Below, in pieces: positions 59,049-64,000 of a stretch of 64,000 nt of DNA. The DNA is taken from the NCBI GenBank assembly GCA_000092065.1, contig CP000597.1; one strand, given 5' to 3'. The notes beneath the pieces are model-generated. The model did no database searches and was not told where the DNA came from. It was given only the letters and a program-made list of their open reading frames with translations. Numbering within the stretch: the stretch's first letter is position 1; each line of letters opens with the position of its first letter. The translations under genes and the position numbers were made by a program. This DNA is from Ostreococcus lucimarinus. Lineage: Eukaryota.

Positions 59049-60632
59049 CTAATAAAGACCGATCACCTTCCACCAAAGACCGCCGAAGACGAGCCAGATG
59101 AGAACGTTGGCGACGCCACAGATGGCGCCGATGCGGAAGTAATCCTTAAGCTCGACGAAGCCGGCGCCGAAGTAGCACGCGGATTGCCCCGAGGCGTAGT
59201 GCGTGATGCCGCCGAAGAGGTTGGTGTGGAAAGCCATGGTGAGGCCGACCAATATGGGCGGCGCGCCGGCAGCCATCATCATCGCCATGAACGCCGTGGA
59301 AAGCGCGGCGACTTGCGCGGTTTGAGACGCGAACAAGTAGTGAATGGAAAAGTAGCAACCGTGGAGCAAAAGCATGACTTGCGGCCACGCCAAGTTGGCC
59401 GCCGTCAATGCGCCGGCGACGGTGGTGGAGAGATAATCGATGAAACCCAGGGCGTTGAGCTGACCAGACATACCGATCAAGACGGCGAACCACAACAACG
59501 TATCCCAAGCGCCCTTTTCGTTCAAGCACTCGGCCCAGGAAATGACGCCGGAGATGAGTTGAAGGGACATCCCGAACATGGCGGCGACGACGGGCGCGAT
59601 GCCAAAGGGTTGGAAAATCCACATGAACACCGTGATGCTCATCGTAGCGACGACCATGAGCTCATCTTGAGACAAAGGACCGAGTTCTTTCAGCTTTGCC
59701 GCCGCCTCCGCGGGAGCGTCGGGCGTGCTTTGCACCTCCGGTGGGTACAACTTGTACACCAAGAGCGGGGTGACGAGCAAACCGATGATCGCCGGGACGC
59801 ACGCCGCCTTGAACCACGTGATCCACGGCGAAGCGACGATGATGCCGAGAGAAGCCGCGAGCTTGAGACTCAACAAGTTTTGAGCCGCCGCGGTCATGCA
59901 CATCGCGCTCGAGTGTCCGCTCGATTGCAGTTGCGTTTGCACCAAAAACGCCCCGAGCTTGCGCGACGTCGGCCCCGGCTCTGACCCCGCCTGCTTGGCG
60001 AGGGACGTGATGATGGGCAAGTACACCCCACCCGCGCGCGCCGTCGTGGACGGCATCGCGGGCGCGAGCAAAGCCTCAGAGATGGTCAGACCGTAAGACA
60101 GACCGAGCGTAGACTTGCCGAGCGCGCGCACGAACATCGTCGCCACGCGGTCGCCCAACCCCGTGCGCACGAAACCGCGCGCGAAGAAGAACGCGAGCAC
60201 GATGAGCCAAATCACATCATTCGTCATCGCTCCGAACGCCGCTTGAAAGCTCAGCGTCTTCGTCACCACCGCCGTGGTCAACCCGACGAACGCCCACGCC
60301 CCCACCGGCAACGGCCCCAACACGAGCCCGCAAATCGTCGACAAAAAAATGCTCAACAGCGCCCACGCCTGCGGCACGACCGCCTCCGGTCGCGGCACAA
60401 TAAAGTTCACCACCAACCCCACGCCCACGGACGCGGCGAGCGGGACCAAATTCGCTCCCTTCCACACGAACGGCGTCGCCGCCGCGCTCGCGTTCGCCGC
60501 GCGCGCCGCGCCCGCGACCACCGCCTCTCGCCGTCGCGCTCGCGTCGCGCCCGCCGCGCCTCGCGCGCTCGCGCACGTCGCACACGCGCACGCGCGCGCG
60601 TGCGCGTCTCCGCGCGTCGTCGGCAGCGCCAT
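59049..60632 (-). CDS. Plastidic 2-oxoglutarate/malate (dicarboxylate) translocator DiT, DASS family
   Basis: FVWKGANLVPLAASVGVGLVVNFIVP..., SEALLAPAMPSTTARAGGVYLPIITSL, HTNLFGGITHYASGQSACYFGAGFV, and IWLVFGGLWWKVIGLY are DiT1/DiT2 hallmark blocks. Start assigned to MALPTTRGD, a transit-peptide-like leader. The track ORF is over-extended to 61352. Confidence 0.75.
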   Translation of the reverse strand: MALPTTRGDAHARACACATCASARGAAGATRARRREAVVAGAARAANASAAATPFVWKGANLVPLAASVGVGLVVNFIVPRPEAVVPQAWALLSIFLSTICGLVLGPLPVGAWAFVGLTTAVVTKTLSFQAAFGAMTNDVIWLIVLAFFFARGFVRTGLGDRVATMFVRALGKSTLGLSYGLTISEALLAPAMPSTTARAGGVYLPIITSLAKQAGSEPGPTSRKLGAFLVQTQLQSSGHSSAMCMTAAAQNLLSLKLAASLGIIVASPWITWFKAACVPAIIGLLVTPLLVYKLYPPEVQSTPDAPAEAAAKLKELGPLSQDELMVVATMSITVFMWIFQPFGIAPVVAAMFGMSLQLISGVISWAECLNEKGAWDTLLWFAVLIGMSGQLNALGFIDYLSTTVAGALTAANLAWPQVMLLLHGCYFSIHYLFASQTAQVAALSTAFMAMMMAAGAPPILVGLTMAFHTNLFGGITHYASGQSACYFGAGFVELKDYFRIGAICGVANVLIWLVFGGLWWKVIGLY

Positions 60633-61647
60633 CGTCGTCGCCGTCGTCGTCGTTCGCGCGCGTCGTCCCGTCGTCGTCGTCGTCGTTCGCGCGCGTCGTC
60701 CCTTCGTCGCGCCGTCGCGCGCGCGCGCGTCGACGCGCGCGCCGATCGCTCTCGCGCTCATCACCGCGCGCATCGTTCGCGTCGAGCGTCGCGCGCGCGC
60801 GTGTGCGGCGTCGCGCGCGTCGAGGTCGTTAGGGCAAATCGAGGCCCCCTCGGAGATAAATGCCGGGAATCGCGTATTCGACGCGTTCGAACGCCGTGTA
60901 TATATATCCGAATGTCCGAATTCATACATCACCGCGCACTGAATGCCCACACGAAGGCGCGCCGACGTCGCCCGCCCCCGCGCCGCGCGCGCGCGCGTCG
61001 CCACACGTCGACGCCCGTCGACATGTTCACGCTCGCGACGCGCCCGACGACGACGCGCGCGACGCGCGTCCCGACCGCGAGCCGACGCCGCTCGACCGCC
61101 GTCGCGCTGACGATGCGCGCGTCGACGACGCCGAACGCGCTCGCGCTCGGCGACACGCCGCGCCGAGTCGCGCTGCAGCGCCGACGGATGACGACGACGA
61201 CGGCGGCGGCGCCGCGAGGCGTCGTCGCGGCGACGGAGGTGCGCGCGCGCGAGCGATGCGATCGACAAAAATTTGCGCGAGCGATCGGGGAGGCGCGGGA
61301 GGCGCGGAGACGCGCGCGGCGCGCGGGGGGGGGCGAGACGACGCGCGAACAAACCCTGGATGGGGTTTCGAGGCGTCGCGCGCGATGGCGCGATGGCGCG
61401 GTGACGCGCGCGGGGGGGGCGACGCGGACGCGCGCGCGCGGTGGAGAAGAAACGAGCGCATCGCGCGGGCGATGCGGGGGACGACGCGCGCGCGAGGAAG
61501 GGGTGGGAGGCGCGAGAGAACGAGAAGGCGATAGGGTTGGCGCTCGGCGGCGAGGACGGCGAGGACGCGGGCGCGAGGGGCGCGCGCGCGATGGACGCGC
61601 GTGGGATATGGAGTACTGACGATGTGTTGATGTTTTACCGCGCGTAG

Positions 61648-62001
61648 GTTGAAGCCGAGAAGAAGGAGGCGGTGTGCTACTTGCGAGGCGTGCGCATGTC
61701 GGCGTCGAAGATTCGTCGCGTGTTGGACGTCATTCGCGGGAAGAGCTACGAGGAGTGCTTGATCATGCTTGAATTCATGCCGTACCGCTCGTGCGAACCG
61801 ATTCTTAACGCGCTGTTCTCTTGCGCGTCGAACGCGAAGAACAACATGGGGATGAACAAGGCGAAGCTGTACGTCTCGGAGTGCTACGCGGACGGCGGGG
61901 CGACGATGAAGCGTTTCCGCCCGCGCGCGCAAGGGCGTCCGTTCTCCATCCGTAAGCGCACGGCGAGCATCACGCTTAAGATGGCTGAGCGTGAAGATTG
62001 A
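61648..62001 (+). CDS. rplV: Organellar (bacterial-type) ribosomal protein uL22, terminal exon; the 5' exon with start codon is not located
   Basis: VEAEKKEAVCYLRGVRMSASKIRRVLDVIRGKSYEECLIMLEFMPYRSCEPILNALFSCASNAKNN...ATMKRFRPRAQGRPFSIRKRTASITL matches bacterial uL22 (ARYLRMSPRKVRLVADLIRGK...MKRIMPRAKGRA..I.KRTSHIT). An in-frame TAG immediately upstream is preceded by a T-rich tract (ttgatgttttaccgcgcgTAG), which I read as a 3' splice site. Confidence 0.7.
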   Translation, partial: VEAEKKEAVCYLRGVRMSASKIRRVLDVIRGKSYEECLIMLEFMPYRSCEPILNALFSCASNAKNNMGMNKAKLYVSECYADGGATMKRFRPRAQGRPFSIRKRTASITLKMAERED

Positions 62002-62304
62002 GCGAACACACATTTATTTGGCATGAGACGTTAGTAGGCTTAGCAACGAACACACCTTAAAATCCGCGAGCGCGCTCGCGTTGTAACGCACGACGCGCGT
62101 TCATTGAATCGATCGAACGAATCACCGAATCGCCGCACCTCCGACGCCATCGCCCGAGCACGCTTCCGCGCGCGCAACCGTCTACATATTTCATTACATC
62201 ACGACGCCGCGCGACGCGCTCGCGCGCCGACGACGCGTCCTCGCCCGCGCCGCTCCGTCGCGTCGCGTCGATCGCCGCCCGACGTCCCGGCGCCGTCCTC
62301 GCGC

Positions 62305-62475
62305 CTACCGCGCGCCCTTCGCCTTGGCCTCGCGTCGCTCGATCGCGACGTCCATCTCGTCCTTTCGCACCTTCATCACGGTGTACCAGTACGCCGCCCC
62401 GCAAAACGTCAACAGCGCCCCCGCGATCGCGGCGTTCCCCGTCGCGCGCGCCGCGTGTCGCTCGCTGAACGCCAT
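62305..62475 (-). CDS. Small single-TM protein (56 aa), hypothetical
   Basis: MAFSERHAARATGNAAIAGALLTFCGAAYWYTVMKVRKDEMDVAIERREAKAKGAR is the C-terminal portion of a longer Arg-rich track ORF. It has one hydrophobic helix followed by a charged tail. Weak call. Confidence 0.25.
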   Translation of the reverse strand: MAFSERHAARATGNAAIAGALLTFCGAAYWYTVMKVRKDEMDVAIERREAKAKGAR

Positions 62476-63364
62476 CTCGCGCGCGCGCGTCGAGCGATGC
62501 TTCGCGCGTGTCGACGCGCCGCGCGCCGCGGACGCCGTCGCGCGACGCGAGCGACCGTCGCGCGCGTGGGAGTGGCGCGAACCGGGCTTCGTTCGTCGGA
62601 CGGCGAACGTCAGTCGTCGTCGCGCGGCGCGACGCGCGGCGCGACGCGCGGAGGCGATCGTTCGACGCGAAAAAATGTTTCGGTGCGTTCGACGCGCGCG
62701 AGGGCGCGTCGAGGACGTCGCGCGAGGTGGACGAGGGGTGAATGCGGCGACGCGCGAACGCATCCGCGCCGCCGGACGACGCGCGAATGAACGGCGTGAC
62801 GACCACACATGCCGCCCCAGTCAGACGACGTTTCGGCGTACGTGGTGATTGGTTTAAGTATACAGTCATGCACGCATGATCGGACCGTTCGTTCGCGACG
62901 TCGGCGCGGAAGGGGCGCGAGGATGGAGAGGTGGAGATGGAGGCGGCGACGACGCGGCGGCGCGGCGGCGCGGCGCGTTTTTCGTTCGTTCGTTCGTTCG
63001 TCATCTGAGCTCGGGAACGCGCGATGCGCGTCGTGAAGAATCGCGAGGAAGATCGAACGCTATTAACCCAGCTCGCTTTGAGCCTCGGCTTTGAAGAGAC
63101 TTGTTCCAAACTACACGACAATTGTCTGAGCGAAATTCGCGCCGACCCGCGCGCGGGAACGAGGAAGATGACGAACGGACGAATGAATGCATCGATGAAC
63201 GCGGGAGATGAGACGGGATGAAGTTTGTTTGTTTCGCGCACTGACGTTGGATTCGGTCGTCGCGAATTCGCGAAATCGCAGAGAACGAACGCGCTCGGAG
63301 ACGCAGAGGCGGGTGGACGTTTGTTTGGTTAAATGAGGTGCGTCTCGGACGTTCTTGTGTTTTC

Positions 63365-63540
63365 TCTCTTCTTCGCCGAAAAGCGAATCGTTACGGAAAT
63401 GAGGACCTCTCTTTCCCCAATTGATCGAAGATGAAAAGCATATAGAAGGCCGGTGCCACCGGCTATACTTGCCAGTATTATCTGATCCGTCAACGATTCG
63501 CCGAACGCATTCGGCGAAGAATGGTTTTTCTTTTTTCTGT
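63365..63540 (+). ncRNA. Candidate small structured RNA in an AT-richer island, ending in a T-tract (Pol III-like terminator)
   Basis: Long-range complementarity: cttcgccgaa (63371-63380) with ttcggcgaag (63511-63520), and gcgaatcg (63383-63390) with cgattcgc (63495-63502). Local hairpins: ggccggtgccaccggc and ttcgccgaacgcattcggcgaa. The element ends with tggtttttcttttttctg. Identity unknown. Confidence 0.3.
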
Positions 63541-64000
63541 GACCGAACGAGGGACGACGCGGACGACGACGCGGGCGCGACGAGCGCGCCCAAAGATTCT
63601 CTGGGGCGTCGCGCGAGTGGAGATGAGGAAATTGATGGTCCGTGTTTACGAATTACGGTGATGAGACAACAAACATCGGGTGTGACAACCCAGTTCCGAT
63701 CTGTTTACGTTCTCGAAGGCCCCCATTGGTCGATGCGTCGTCATCGTCGTCCACGTTATTCGCGTTTTCACATCACTCGTTTGTTTGCTTCGCTAAGTTG
63801 GGCACTTTACTCCGTCAGTGTTTCTTTGCCCCGTTCCCTAGAAGCTAGAACGATAGGTCGGCCCGTTGAATCGAAGCTTCGGGTTCGGTCGCGCAACTGG
63901 TTTCTCGCTATGTTTATTCGCTGCTTACCGCGGGTAAATACATTGAGGCCAGACATCTATCGATGCATTTACGATGACCATTTCGTCGCGCGGGATCGCC

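Follow-up and report, generated by a model that had tools for sequence, protein, structure and literature searches.

A box C/D snoRNA of about 98 nt is in all probability encoded on the plus strand at positions 63393-63490 of a 64,000-nucleotide stretch of DNA from Ostreococcus lucimarinus, a green alga of the Bathycoccaceae (contig CP000597.1 of assembly GCA_000092065.1), the whole of which is referred to below as the window. This RNA is the ortholog of O. tauri Ot-CDsno123, most likely a member of the Z103/SNORD12/snR190/snR107 family and one unit of a polycistronic snoRNA cluster, and the long inverted repeats that bracket it would act as a precursor clamp removed by trimming. The gene is of a published kind in a published cluster and does not represent a novel class of structured RNA. 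The initial annotation of the segment 63365-63540 had described a structured small RNA forming a domain of about 150 nt. The non-coding RNA gene, its plus strand and a selected long-range stem were borne out, whereas the domain of about 150 nt gives way to a snoRNA of about 98 nt lying within the stem. The elements of the gene are as follows.

63369-63380, plus strand: outer 5' arm of the putative precursor stem, TTCTTCGCCGAA, complementary to 63510-63521 at 12/12 positions and paired in the minimum free energy (MFE) fold
63383-63392, plus strand: inner 5' arm, GCGAATCGTT, complementary to 63492-63501 at 10/10 positions and paired in the MFE fold
63393-63490, plus strand: mature box C/D snoRNA (predicted, about 98 nt), Ot-CDsno123 ortholog, from the Rfam match and 96% identity
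63393-63397, plus strand: 5' half of the terminal stem, ACGGA, pairing with 63486-63490
63399-63405, plus strand: box C, variant AUGAGGA, invariant in 13 Mamiellophyceae orthologs
63407-63418, plus strand: antisense element 1 (ASE1), CUCUCUUUCCCC, upstream of box D', from the family consensus
63421-63424, plus strand: box D', UUGA, aligned with CAGA of SNORD12 and AUGA of Z103
63431-63437, plus strand: degenerate box C', AUGAAAA, at the place of C' in the alignments to Z103 and snR107
63448-63464, plus strand: internal hairpin GGCCGGU-GCC-ACCGGCU between C' and ASE2, from the predicted fold
63469-63481, plus strand: antisense element 2 (ASE2), UUGCCAGUAUUAU, upstream of box D, with a conserved GCCAG core
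63482-63485, plus strand: box D, CUGA, invariant in 16/16 aligned family members and also in 13 Mamiellophyceae orthologs
63486-63490, plus strand: 3' half of the terminal stem, UCCGU, pairing with 63393-63397
63492-63501, plus strand: inner 3' arm, AACGATTCGC, from repeat complementarity and the MFE fold
63497-63518, plus strand: alternative local hairpin TTCGCCGAA-CGCA-TTCGGCGAA (9 bp, loop CGCA), competing with the long-range helix
63510-63521, plus strand: outer 3' arm, TTCGGCGAAGAA, from repeat complementarity and the MFE fold
63522-63539, plus strand: T-rich spacer after the stem, with one T5 and one T6 run

The outer repeat, first reported as a 10-mer, extends to 12 bp. The inner one is likewise real and comprises 10 bp instead of 8, its 3' cgattcgc being located at 63494-63501 and not at 63495-63502. 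An additional stem of 5 bp (ACGGA 63393-97 with TCCGT 63486-90) prolongs the helix, and all 27 pairs (12 + 10 + 5 bp) are used in the MFE fold, where they form a single 27-bp helix. The fold of the 176-nt element reaches -57.7 kcal/mol as compared to -42.4 +/- 4.3 for shuffled sequences (z = -3.6, 0/200 shuffles as good), and the duplex between the 5' and 3' flanks scores z = -6.6 with 0/300 shuffles as good. The folding of the 27-bp helix is in excess of chance. Two local hairpins had also been proposed inside the closed domain. The first, GGCCGGT/ACCGGCT (63448-54 / 63458-64), was confirmed. The second, built on the TTCGCCGAA motif of which three copies occur locally, is real as well, but it overlaps both 3' arms and for this reason excludes the long-range helix. 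It is not chosen in the MFE fold of the element and is absent from the relatives L011, L007, L002, L008 and L010. The low-GC island in which the element was said to lie is genuine, with a GC content of 0.53 versus about 0.68-0.69 upstream. RNA of the minus strand folds equally well (-63.1 kcal/mol, z = -4.8) and was considered as a candidate, then rejected on the grounds that boxes, guides and homology are all found on the plus strand and that the flank stems contain G-U pairs. These account for 31 of the 361 predicted flank pairs, a proportion that fits the plus strand.

At gathering thresholds, an Rfam scan of the whole window, a check that the initial annotation had proposed, found nothing. 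When permissive E-values were allowed, snoRNA families did match below these thresholds: snoZ103 (RF00149) aligned over its full length to 63393-63490 with 32 bits (E=5.7e-4; 32.0 against a threshold of 44), followed by snR107 (RF04328, 18.5 against 44) and SNORD12 (RF00581, 16.4 against 43 bits). The other Mamiellophyceae orthologs likewise remain under the Z103 threshold, while plant sequences fetched by the common core motif score 87-100 bits; these plant Z103 sequences align box for box with the algal orthologs. Identity to the published Ot-CDsno123 is 96% over 97 nt by BLAST. At the syntenic loci, which are single-copy in all relatives examined, the snoRNA core is 79-97% conserved. Covariation was observed in the terminal stem, where among 16 family members pair 4/111 is AU in 7, CG in 5 and UA in 4, none of them being broken, and pair 3/112 is AU in 12, GC in 3 and GU in one. 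The box C column of plant Z103 is filled by (A/G)UGA(G/U)GA, and the UGAGGA variant is common to plant Z103 and the present gene. A hairpin at the position between C' and ASE2 is predicted in 16/17 folded members with differing sequences, for instance GCUAGGU/ACCUAGC or CCUCA/UGAGG, among Ostreococcus-, Bathycoccus- and Micromonas-like and plant members; in the exception, L017, a competing fold is better by 0.2 kcal/mol. The earlier by-eye statement that the element matches none of the U1, U2, U4, U5, U6 and SRP consensus sequences was correct, and the likeness of its AAUGAGG to U4 is presumably the K-turn motif that both share.

The neighbourhood of the gene supports the same identification. 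The order and strand of the units, established on the window and on a near-identical contig, are those of O. tauri cluster 12 (Ot-CDsno121, 122, 123, 124, HAsno125 and HAsno126). Downstream, over a distance of about 650 nt, come five more snoRNAs of the same strand, which lie in the window or immediately past its end. The other units of the cluster located in the window are listed here.

62790-62892, plus strand: C/D unit, Ot-CDsno121 ortholog, by BLAST to the published sequence and as a conserved island; 39 flank-flank pairs, z=-2.2
63038-63133, plus strand: C/D unit, Ot-CDsno122 ortholog, 93% identical by alignment; 55-57 flank-flank pairs, z=-5.9 to -8.8
63619-63703, plus strand: C/D unit, Ot-CDsno124 ortholog with the U18-like guide UGGUCCGUGUUU, 81% identical; 36 flank-flank pairs, z=-2.2
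63784-63958, plus strand: H/ACA unit, Ot-HAsno125 ortholog, 88% identical over 176 nt; flank pairing not significant (z=-0.9)

The Ot-CDsno124 ortholog also matched Rfam snoU18 in the permissive scan (25 bits, E=0.28). In O. tauri, Ot-CDsno123 is an uncapped RNA of 97-99 nt detected by RNA-seq at 400-560 TPM and recorded as 'cl 12 - IG', whose mature form ends at the short terminal stem; the snoRNAs of such clusters are described as uncapped products of polycistronic precursors (PMC7671301). The chromosome 18 gene of O. tauri (Bousquet et al. 2020, PMC7671301) displays the same boxes and internal hairpin as the present one, and its neighbouring units are 81-93% identical to those described here, whereas the spacer to the preceding unit measures about 208 nt in that species versus about 260 nt in O. 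lucimarinus. Elsewhere in the window, a plastid dicarboxylate-transporter gene is found at 59049-60938 on the minus strand (79% identity), and there is synteny with Bathycoccus prasinos. Three other candidates were discarded: a 160-aa ORF at 63111-63593 on the minus strand, which has no Pfam match, overlaps the snoRNA and was treated as spurious; a 5.8S rRNA match of 18.9 bits in the permissive Rfam scan; and a match in a scan for bacterial-type terminators and promoters, the last two being judged chance.

According to the initial annotation, the oligo-T that follows the stem resembles a Pol III terminator. The corresponding reading, an independent Pol III-type structured RNA of about 150-170 nt in which the stem belongs to the mature molecule and transcription stops at T5/T6, appears very improbable. 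The T5 and T6 runs do exist directly 3' of the stem, a T-rich tract occupies this place in 5/6 lineages, and the mature snoRNA itself is devoid of any run of at least 4 T. Moreover, the O. tauri study takes T-stretches to be the Pol III terminators of certain intergenic snoRNA genes, and Northern blots in that species revealed unexpectedly long stable forms in some other clusters (PMC7671301). The O. tauri ortholog is nevertheless 97-99 nt long, uncapped, a member of a polycistronic cluster and without a T-stretch flag (PMC7671301), and sequence conservation is confined to the core while the arms turn over. T-rich spacers are found all along the cluster in all relatives, and runs of at least 5 T are spread over many of them, including the spacer from this unit to the next in 5/6 lineages; T runs also occur upstream on the same strand (T4 at 63361-64, T5 at 62979-83), and same-strand snoRNAs follow downstream. 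T5/T6 start 32 nt past the mature 3' end as deduced from the O. tauri ortholog. A search for the upstream sequence element (USE, RTCCCACATCG), which the initial annotation had also recommended, yielded no plant-type site within 1.9 kb, and none appeared in the interval 61480-64000 when as many as 2 mismatches were allowed; this consensus is that of land plants and may not be the one used by this alga. The USE-like matches in the window as a whole number 71 for 71.3 expected, which is the chance level. No tRNA was found by ARAGORN, and a tRNA-snoRNA dicistron is therefore not indicated. The T-rich tract is best regarded as a spacer, and a role in Pol III termination is unlikely.

The evolution of the flanks was assessed by per-sequence constrained folds with shuffle controls. 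Column-based covariation on MAFFT alignments failed for the flank stems and for the internal hairpin because bulges and unrelated arms shift the registers. In each of 6 syntenic lineages, 27-46 flank-flank pairs are formed in spite of diverged sequences, and 13 distinct Mamiellophyceae sequences, Bathycoccus- and Micromonas-like ones with unrelated arms included, all display 18-46 spanning pairs. The z-scores of the flank duplexes go down to -5 to -8 with respect to shuffles of the same composition; those of the Bathycoccus-like duplexes are modest (-1.7 to -3.3). The outer 5' arm has no conserved sequence, yet in the relatives it remains paired, with a partner that differs from lineage to lineage. 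The outer 12-bp pair as such is not conserved in L011 and L007, which are the two closest relatives; the sequence of the outer 3' arm is absent from them, and their 5' arms pair elsewhere. Only the snoRNA core is conserved in sequence, the length and position of the arms varying widely among lineages. These comparisons, which answer the conservation and covariation check contemplated in the initial annotation, show that the flank pairing is structurally conserved and maintained by compensatory turnover in Ostreococcus-, Bathycoccus- and Micromonas-like genomes. The property is shared within the window by all 4 C/D units (36-55 spanning pairs, z from -2.2 to -5.9), for the third snoRNA of the cluster in a flank-pairing test that covers the window, whereas the 2 H/ACA units are both devoid of a significant flank helix (z of -0.9 and -1.7).

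Inverted repeats of this kind could also be non-functional, whether as the ends of a mobile element or as palindromes that arise by chance where DNA is CG-rich, and both the three local occurrences of TTCGCCGAA and the abundance in this genome of easily pairing CG-type low-complexity sequence could be invoked to that effect. Such an origin is strongly disfavoured, to the point of being scarcely credible, given that the pairing is kept with its sequence replaced in every lineage examined, that all relatives carry the locus once and in synteny, that the z-scores of -5 to -8 were obtained against shuffles of equal composition, and that the pairing is specific to C/D and not H/ACA units. The authors of the O. 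tauri study mention a 'strong terminal IR ... truncated by trimming' and note that the IRs are visible in the genomic sequence only (PMC7671301); the length, evolution and role of the flank stems are not analysed in that paper.

The long arms are most likely restricted to the precursor and absent from the mature RNA, because the mature O. tauri ortholog, with its 97-99 nt, extends no further than the short terminal stem. The most likely role that we infer for the stem is that of a clamp for snoRNP assembly, possibly combined with RNase III cleavage. In the nascent precursor, the 10-bp and 12-bp repeats would extend the terminal stem to a helix of 27 bp, which would clamp box C against box D and allow the K-turn to form. 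The core snoRNP proteins could then assemble on the clamped K-turn before exonucleases arrive. Exonucleases would subsequently trim the arms back to the edge of the snoRNP, possibly after an earlier RNase III-type cut of the double-stranded stem. C/D snoRNAs with a short terminal stem are known to be helped in their snoRNP assembly by external or flanking stems (reviewed in PMC10557570). As in the present case, these external stems (PMC10557570) rely on a flank complementarity that joins boxes C and D and is lost in trimming. They are however much shorter than the helices described here, which span 27-58 bp, come on top of an existing terminal stem of 5 bp and, unlike the stems of PMC10557570, accompany all the C/D units of a polycistronic cluster that is intergenic.

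The balance between assembly and cleavage may also be the reverse, the flank helices serving chiefly as RNase III-type (Rnt1/Pac1-like) signals that free the C/D units, with the aid to assembly being secondary. This possibility is a serious one, although we consider it rather less probable than not. Helices of 27-58 bp made of mostly Watson-Crick dsRNA have a size that suits RNase III, and double-stranded stems are processing signals in polycistronic precursors of the Rnt1 and Pac1 systems, to which the present helices are analogous: Rnt1 separates polycistronic snoRNAs in yeast, and in Schizosaccharomyces complementary sequences with compensatory changes bracket snR107 and form a Pac1 site after splicing (PMC12508059). 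Against a primary cleavage function, the two H/ACA units of the cluster need to be released as well and yet have no such helices, and the length and position of the arms differ widely among lineages. The known systems also differ in their layout. The arms of the S. pombe Pac1 stem meet only after excision of the snoRNA intron and the cleavage serves the downstream U14 (PMC12508059), whereas no intron is evident around the snoRNA studied here; Rnt1 of yeast usually acts on distinct AGNN-capped hairpins located in the intervals from one snoRNA to the next, whereas here the snoRNA constitutes the tip of the helix. The clamp, with or without an early cut, is retained as the preferred reading of the stem.

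With regard to family membership, plant Z103 (RF00149), human SNORD12/12B/12C, S. cerevisiae snR190 and S. pombe snR107 (RF04328) all carry CUUUCCCC in the ASE1 that precedes D', as does the O. lucimarinus gene, and this motif is invariant across 3 family models and 16 aligned members at an equal position relative to D'. A GCCAG-containing ASE2 before box D, a stem-loop after C' (described downstream of C' in S. pombe snR107), the length and the order of the boxes are common to the family and to the present gene; Z103, SNORD12 and snR107 all retain the GCCAG core, and the UUGCCAGUAU core of ASE2 matches the snR107 and SNORD12 consensus. Differences reside in the genomic setting. The unit directly downstream of the family member is U14 in yeasts and the U18-like Ot-CDsno124 ortholog here, a downstream U14 being a fungal feature that is not universal in the family; the U14 of O. 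tauri is located in cluster 1 (PMC7671301). The family member is intronic in human and S. pombe but not here, and the tandem multi-copy Z103 arrays of plant contigs have no equivalent at this locus. On the basis of these sequence comparisons, the SNORD12/snR190/snR107/Z103 family appears to be represented in green algae by Ot-CDsno123 and its orthologs.

The rRNA targets can be predicted for O. lucimarinus from one foreign LSU fragment and from the literature. ASE1 forms 9 contiguous Watson-Crick pairs with GGGGAAAGA in a single eukaryotic LSU rRNA fragment of foreign origin, matched on a viral contig, that covers the H73 region only. The ASE1 of the family is documented to target a guanosine of LSU helix H73 and has been shown experimentally in S. 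pombe to direct 25S Gm2483. By analogy, the CUUUCCCC of ASE1 would pair with GGGGAAAG in H73 of the large-subunit rRNA and place fibrillarin on the third G, corresponding to S. cerevisiae G2395, S. pombe Gm2483 and human 28S G3878. The fifth-nucleotide rule designates the third G of GGGG, in agreement, itself partly deduced, with yeast C2392/G2395. The UUGCCAGUAUU of ASE2 is predicted to pair with LSU rRNA domain I, to which the ASE2 or box B of the family is complementary, a contact that has a chaperone role in yeasts. The family member methylates in S. pombe and human and only chaperones in S. cerevisiae. The O. tauri study (PMC7671301) assigns instead 18S.G1511 to Ot-CDsno123, whereas H73 is predicted here. 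Should ASE1 guide methylation of 18S rRNA at O. tauri G1511, the RNA could be a Mamiellophyceae-specific guide foreign to the Z103/SNORD12 family. This target, a snoScan prediction, is given in Table S4 with no human, yeast or plant ortholog, and Table S6 classes the snoRNA as Mamiellophyceae-restricted (PMC7671301). In addition, a SNORD25-type guide, which accompanies Z103 in plant contigs, is not listed for O. tauri in Table S4. We nevertheless find a lineage-specific guide unlikely: the likeness to Z103, snR107 and SNORD12 goes past the guide and includes D', the UCGA spacer, C', the hairpin position, ASE2 and the UCC after box D, and ASE1 of the S. pombe member experimentally directs 25S Gm2483. 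The 18S and 25S targets of ASE1 are in any case not mutually exclusive.

A broader proposal is offered tentatively, its chances being well below even. Every C/D unit of the Mamiellophyceae clusters may lie at the tip of a long helix (27-58 bp, fast-evolving, structure-conserved and pri-miRNA-like) that would act as an obligatory signal for assembly and RNase III-type excision, the H/ACA units being processed by another route, and Ot-CDsno123 would supply the green-algal member so far missing from the pan-eukaryotic SNORD12/snR190 family, which contacts LSU domains I and V. If this holds true, the helix signal of C/D units could account for the long precursor forms of unusual stability described in O. 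tauri. The family view also differs from the O. tauri catalogue, in which Ot-CDsno123 figures as a lineage-specific RNA directed to 18S; the family serves in yeast as a chaperone that links LSU rRNA domains I and V. Finally, the presence of flank helices on the C/D but not on the H/ACA units provides a testable handle on the assembly and cutting of polycistronic snoRNA precursors in the green lineage.

Rfam scanning, suggested as a check by the initial annotation, returned no match over the whole window at curated thresholds, whereas in a permissive scan of 62800-64000 the segment 63393-63490 (+) was matched full-length by the plant box C/D family Z103 (RF00149), with 32 bits (E = 5.7e-4) and a threshold of 44 that is not reached. 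Weaker matches of the element were obtained with fungal snR107 and human SNORD12/106.

Features of the flagged element (63365-63540) and its cluster; boxes and antisense elements (ASE1, ASE2) according to the Rfam alignments, inverted repeats and 9-bp hairpin from repeat search
62790-62892, + strand: C/D unit, Ot-CDsno121 ortholog
about 63038-63134, + strand: C/D unit, Ot-CDsno122 ortholog, also in the permissive scan
63369-63380 and 63510-63521: outer inverted repeat, TTCTTCGCCGAA vs TTCGGCGAAGAA, 12/12 bp
63383-63392 and 63492-63501: inner inverted repeat, GCGAATCGTT vs AACGATTCGC, 10/10 bp
63399-405, + strand: box C, AUGAGGA
63407-18, + strand: ASE1, CUCUCUUUCCCC
63421-24, + strand: box D', UUGA
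63431-37, + strand: box C', AUGAAAA
63448-64, + strand: internal hairpin GGCCGGU-GCC-ACCGGCU between C' and ASE2 (sequence and fold)
63469-81, + strand: ASE2, UUGCCAGUAUUAU
63482-85, + strand: box D, CUGA
63497-63518: 9-bp local hairpin
63522-63539: T5 and T6 runs
about 63619-63704, + strand: C/D unit, U18-like, Ot-CDsno124 ortholog, also in the permissive scan
63784-63958, + strand: H/ACA unit, Ot-HAsno125 ortholog

Judged by its sequence, the element is a snoRNA type already published for Ostreococcus tauri, where 131 snoRNAs were catalogued using RNA-seq (Bousquet et al. 2020, PMC7671301). Counterparts of the published sequences Ot-CDsno121 to Ot-HAsno126 lie in the window and its continuation, with order and strand unchanged, Ot-CDsno123 being 96% identical to 63394-63490 over 97 nt. 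This RNA is described as uncapped, 97-99 nt long, 'cl 12 - IG', located on chromosome 18, expressed at about 400-560 TPM and present in O. lucimarinus, O. mediterraneus, Bathycoccus and both Micromonas genomes; all clustered O. tauri snoRNAs are uncapped and originate from polycistronic precursors (PMC7671301). The authors also point out strong terminal inverted repeats in the genomic sequence that trimming removes (PMC7671301). According to this record, the mature RNA ends at a 5-bp terminal stem and the long arms belong to the precursor. The small RNA gene and long-range stem proposed initially are retained, the stem as a selected structure, while the proposed domain of about 150 nt is replaced by a known box C/D snoRNA whose arms exist in the precursor only.

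Since further C/D units (one U18-like, 63620-63704; another at 63041-63134) were found in the permissive scan, the element is one member of a snoRNA cluster. The low-GC island described initially was confirmed (GC 0.53 in 63001-64000 vs 0.68-0.69 directly upstream). The island is occupied throughout (62790-64000) by the ortholog of O. tauri snoRNA cluster 12, and on the near-identical ENA metagenome contig L001 (ERZ27251070 k141_1934825) this ortholog extends to ~64920. Conserved islands follow in series across the intergenic region and continue for about 900 nt past the window; outside it lie at least one more H/ACA unit (Ot-HAsno126 ortholog) and further islands probably containing C/D units. 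No tRNA was detected by tRNA search. A plastid dicarboxylate transporter gene is located at 59049-60938 (minus strand) and the identical protein is encoded on L001, which is 99.2% identical to the window over 15 kb (63 mismatches and 59 gap positions) and displays no difference in 63300-63600. Relatives with 79-94% transporter protein identity, the 79% group including a protein named Bathycoccus prasinos, have the same gene order. This points to an Ostreococcus-like member of the Bathycoccaceae as the source of the window.

The Ot-CDsno122 ortholog, whose counterpart is classed as an orphan (PMC7671301), has a degenerate box C (AGGAAGA, 63046-63052) in the window and its closest relatives L011 and L007, where L002, L008 and the Bathycoccus-like L010 have GUGAUGA or GUGACGA. 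The conserved element UUAACCCAGCUCGCUUUGAGCC of this ortholog is similar to Tetrahymena TtnuCD4 / SNORD29 guides. A U18-type guide, UGGUCCGUGUUU (Rfam snoU18, 25 bits), is present in the Ot-CDsno124 ortholog, whose box D reads CCGA in the window, CUGA in L011 and CAGA in L002 and L008; the O. tauri table lists 25S.A557 as target and names no ortholog (PMC7671301). A gene diverging from the cluster (62305-62808, - strand) appears to encode a small membrane protein, with a weak Coa3_cc Pfam match (cytochrome oxidase assembly factor 3) for its L007 ortholog, and its 5' end is overlapped by the start of the Ot-CDsno121 ortholog or lies within about 20 nt of it. Two ORFs overlapping the cluster, one of 160 aa (63111-63593, - strand; no Pfam match) and a 65-aa gene predicted on L001 (window 63035-63232, + strand), look spurious, as the authors likewise remark for small CDSs over O. 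tauri snoRNA clusters (PMC7671301).

The 10-mer and 8-mer pairings of the initial annotation are real and form the cores of the outer and inner repeats, the 3' 8-mer having been placed one base too high. Upon RNA folding of 63365-63540, both repeats and the 5-bp stem ACGGA/UCCGU produce a 27-bp interrupted helix at -57.7 kcal/mol vs -42.4 +/- 4.3 for dinucleotide shuffles (z = -3.6, 0/200 as good); the 5'-flank/3'-flank duplex of the 63393-63490 unit alone gives z = -6.6. Both local hairpins reported earlier were recovered (63448-64 and 63497-63518), and the second includes parts of both 3' arms, which puts it in competition with the long helix. An 11-bp hairpin (63295-63349; TCGGAGACGCA / TGCGTCTCGGA, one mismatch) is also located in the spacer before the outer arm; it encloses a second AAAUGAGG motif and is not conserved in the other lineages.

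The closing stem is selected as structure, not sequence. The snoRNA core is 79-97% identical in all syntenic loci and the flanks have diverged. Each ortholog was folded with the C-to-D core held single-stranded, and long flank helices (27-46 pairs) with different arm sequences were obtained in all six syntenic lineages. The outer 12-bp pair as such is absent from L011 and L007, whose 5' arms pair with other downstream sequences instead. Cognate flank duplexes average -31.7 kcal/mol vs -19.8 for non-cognate combinations. Across 13 distinct Mamiellophyceae sequences, 18-46 spanning pairs are found, with z of -6 to -8 in several Ostreococcus-like lineages, -2 to -6.5 in Micromonas-like and -1.7 to -3.3 in Bathycoccus-like ones. 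G-U pairs, compatible only with the + strand, represent about 9% of the predicted flank pairs. Flank helices of the Ot-CDsno122 ortholog comprise 14-58 pairs in 6/6 lineages, and all four C/D units of the window display 36-55 flank-flank pairs (z = -2.2 to -5.9), while the same test gave no significant flank pairing for the two H/ACA units of the cluster (z = -0.9 and -1.7).

Because flanking-sequence stems are known to assist C/D snoRNP assembly (review, PMC10557570) and the helices are specific to C/D units, their primary role would be to clamp boxes C and D together while the polycistronic transcript is being made. This would allow K-turn formation and binding of the core proteins ahead of the exonucleases, which would subsequently trim the flanks back to the edge of the snoRNP. 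At 27-58 bp, the helices are plausible RNase III substrates as well: in yeast, Rnt1 cuts polycistronic snoRNAs apart (PMC10557570), and Schizosaccharomyces snR107 is bracketed by complementary sequences that create a Pac1 site after splicing and show compensatory evolution (PMC12508059). The H/ACA units, which have no such helices, argue against RNase III as the general mechanism of release, and its action on the flank helices is considered rather doubtful.

The T-run had been compared to a Pol III terminator. This is unlikely, since T runs of at least 5 occur at many cluster spacers in all lineages, one directly upstream of the previous unit, with a T4 run 5 nt before the outer arm; the next snoRNA follows ~80 nt downstream and further units come after it on the same strand; no plant-type USE, an upstream element also suggested for inspection, was found near the element; and in O. 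tauri the RNAs of the cluster lack a cap and arise by processing (PMC7671301). T runs outnumber A runs on the cluster strand in 4/6 lineages. Speculatively, the T-run might be an unstructured spacer or a post-cleavage La-type binding site, cf. yeast U3 (PMC10557570).

Ot-CDsno123 was assigned the target 18S.G1511 and described as Mamiellophyceae-restricted, with no human, yeast or plant ortholog (PMC7671301). Sequence comparison indicates that it probably belongs, with the window element, to the SNORD12 / snR190 / snR107 / Z103 family, whose Rfam thresholds the window element does not reach. Scanning metagenomes for CTTTCCCCANNTGATCGA gave 120 stretches, and 35 of the pattern matches within them also possess an upstream C box and a downstream GCCAG...CUGA. 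These are Ostreococcus-, Bathycoccus- and Micromonas-like sequences and plant sequences, the latter scoring 87-100 bits on Z103. Common to the aligned algal and plant sequences are box C (the UGAGGA variant occurring in grasses too), ASE1, D', a UCGA spacer, C', ASE2 GCCAG and box D followed by UCC. Covariation, a check suggested by the initial annotation, is present in their terminal stem (AU:7, CG:5, UA:4 at one pair, 0 broken). A hairpin of unrelated sequence is predicted between C' and ASE2 in 16 of the 17 family members folded, and S. pombe snR107 has a stem-loop after C' as in the algal element.

According to the literature, snR107, snR190 and SNORD12/B/C are orthologous, and ASE1 in each pairs with LSU rRNA helix H73, which is methylated in S. 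pombe (Gm2483, experimentally shown) and human (G3878), S. cerevisiae G2395 being unmethylated; ASE2, or box B, pairs with LSU domain I in a chaperone role. With D' = UUGA and the fifth-nucleotide rule, the third G of GGGGAAAG is the predicted ASE1 target. This agrees, as we partly infer, with yeast numbering, in which C2392 immediately precedes the run and G2395 is targeted. ASE1 forms nine contiguous pairs with GGGGAAAGA in the one eukaryotic LSU fragment compared, which is from another organism. Ot-CDsno123-type RNAs may target 18S, alone or besides LSU, as in the published assignment (PMC7671301). Plant Z103 genes on the plant-like metagenome contigs L101, L076, L019, L086 and L052 form tandem multi-copy arrays, in contrast to the single-copy algal genes, and cluster with SNORD25, U31b, Z101 and snoR136. 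SNORD25 presumably guides the same 18S site as that assigned to Ot-CDsno123.

The analysis of this element thereby makes it probable that Ot-CDsno123 should be re-assigned to the SNORD12/snR190/Z103 family, and gives comparative evidence that long, C/D-specific flank helices are kept across Mamiellophyceae.
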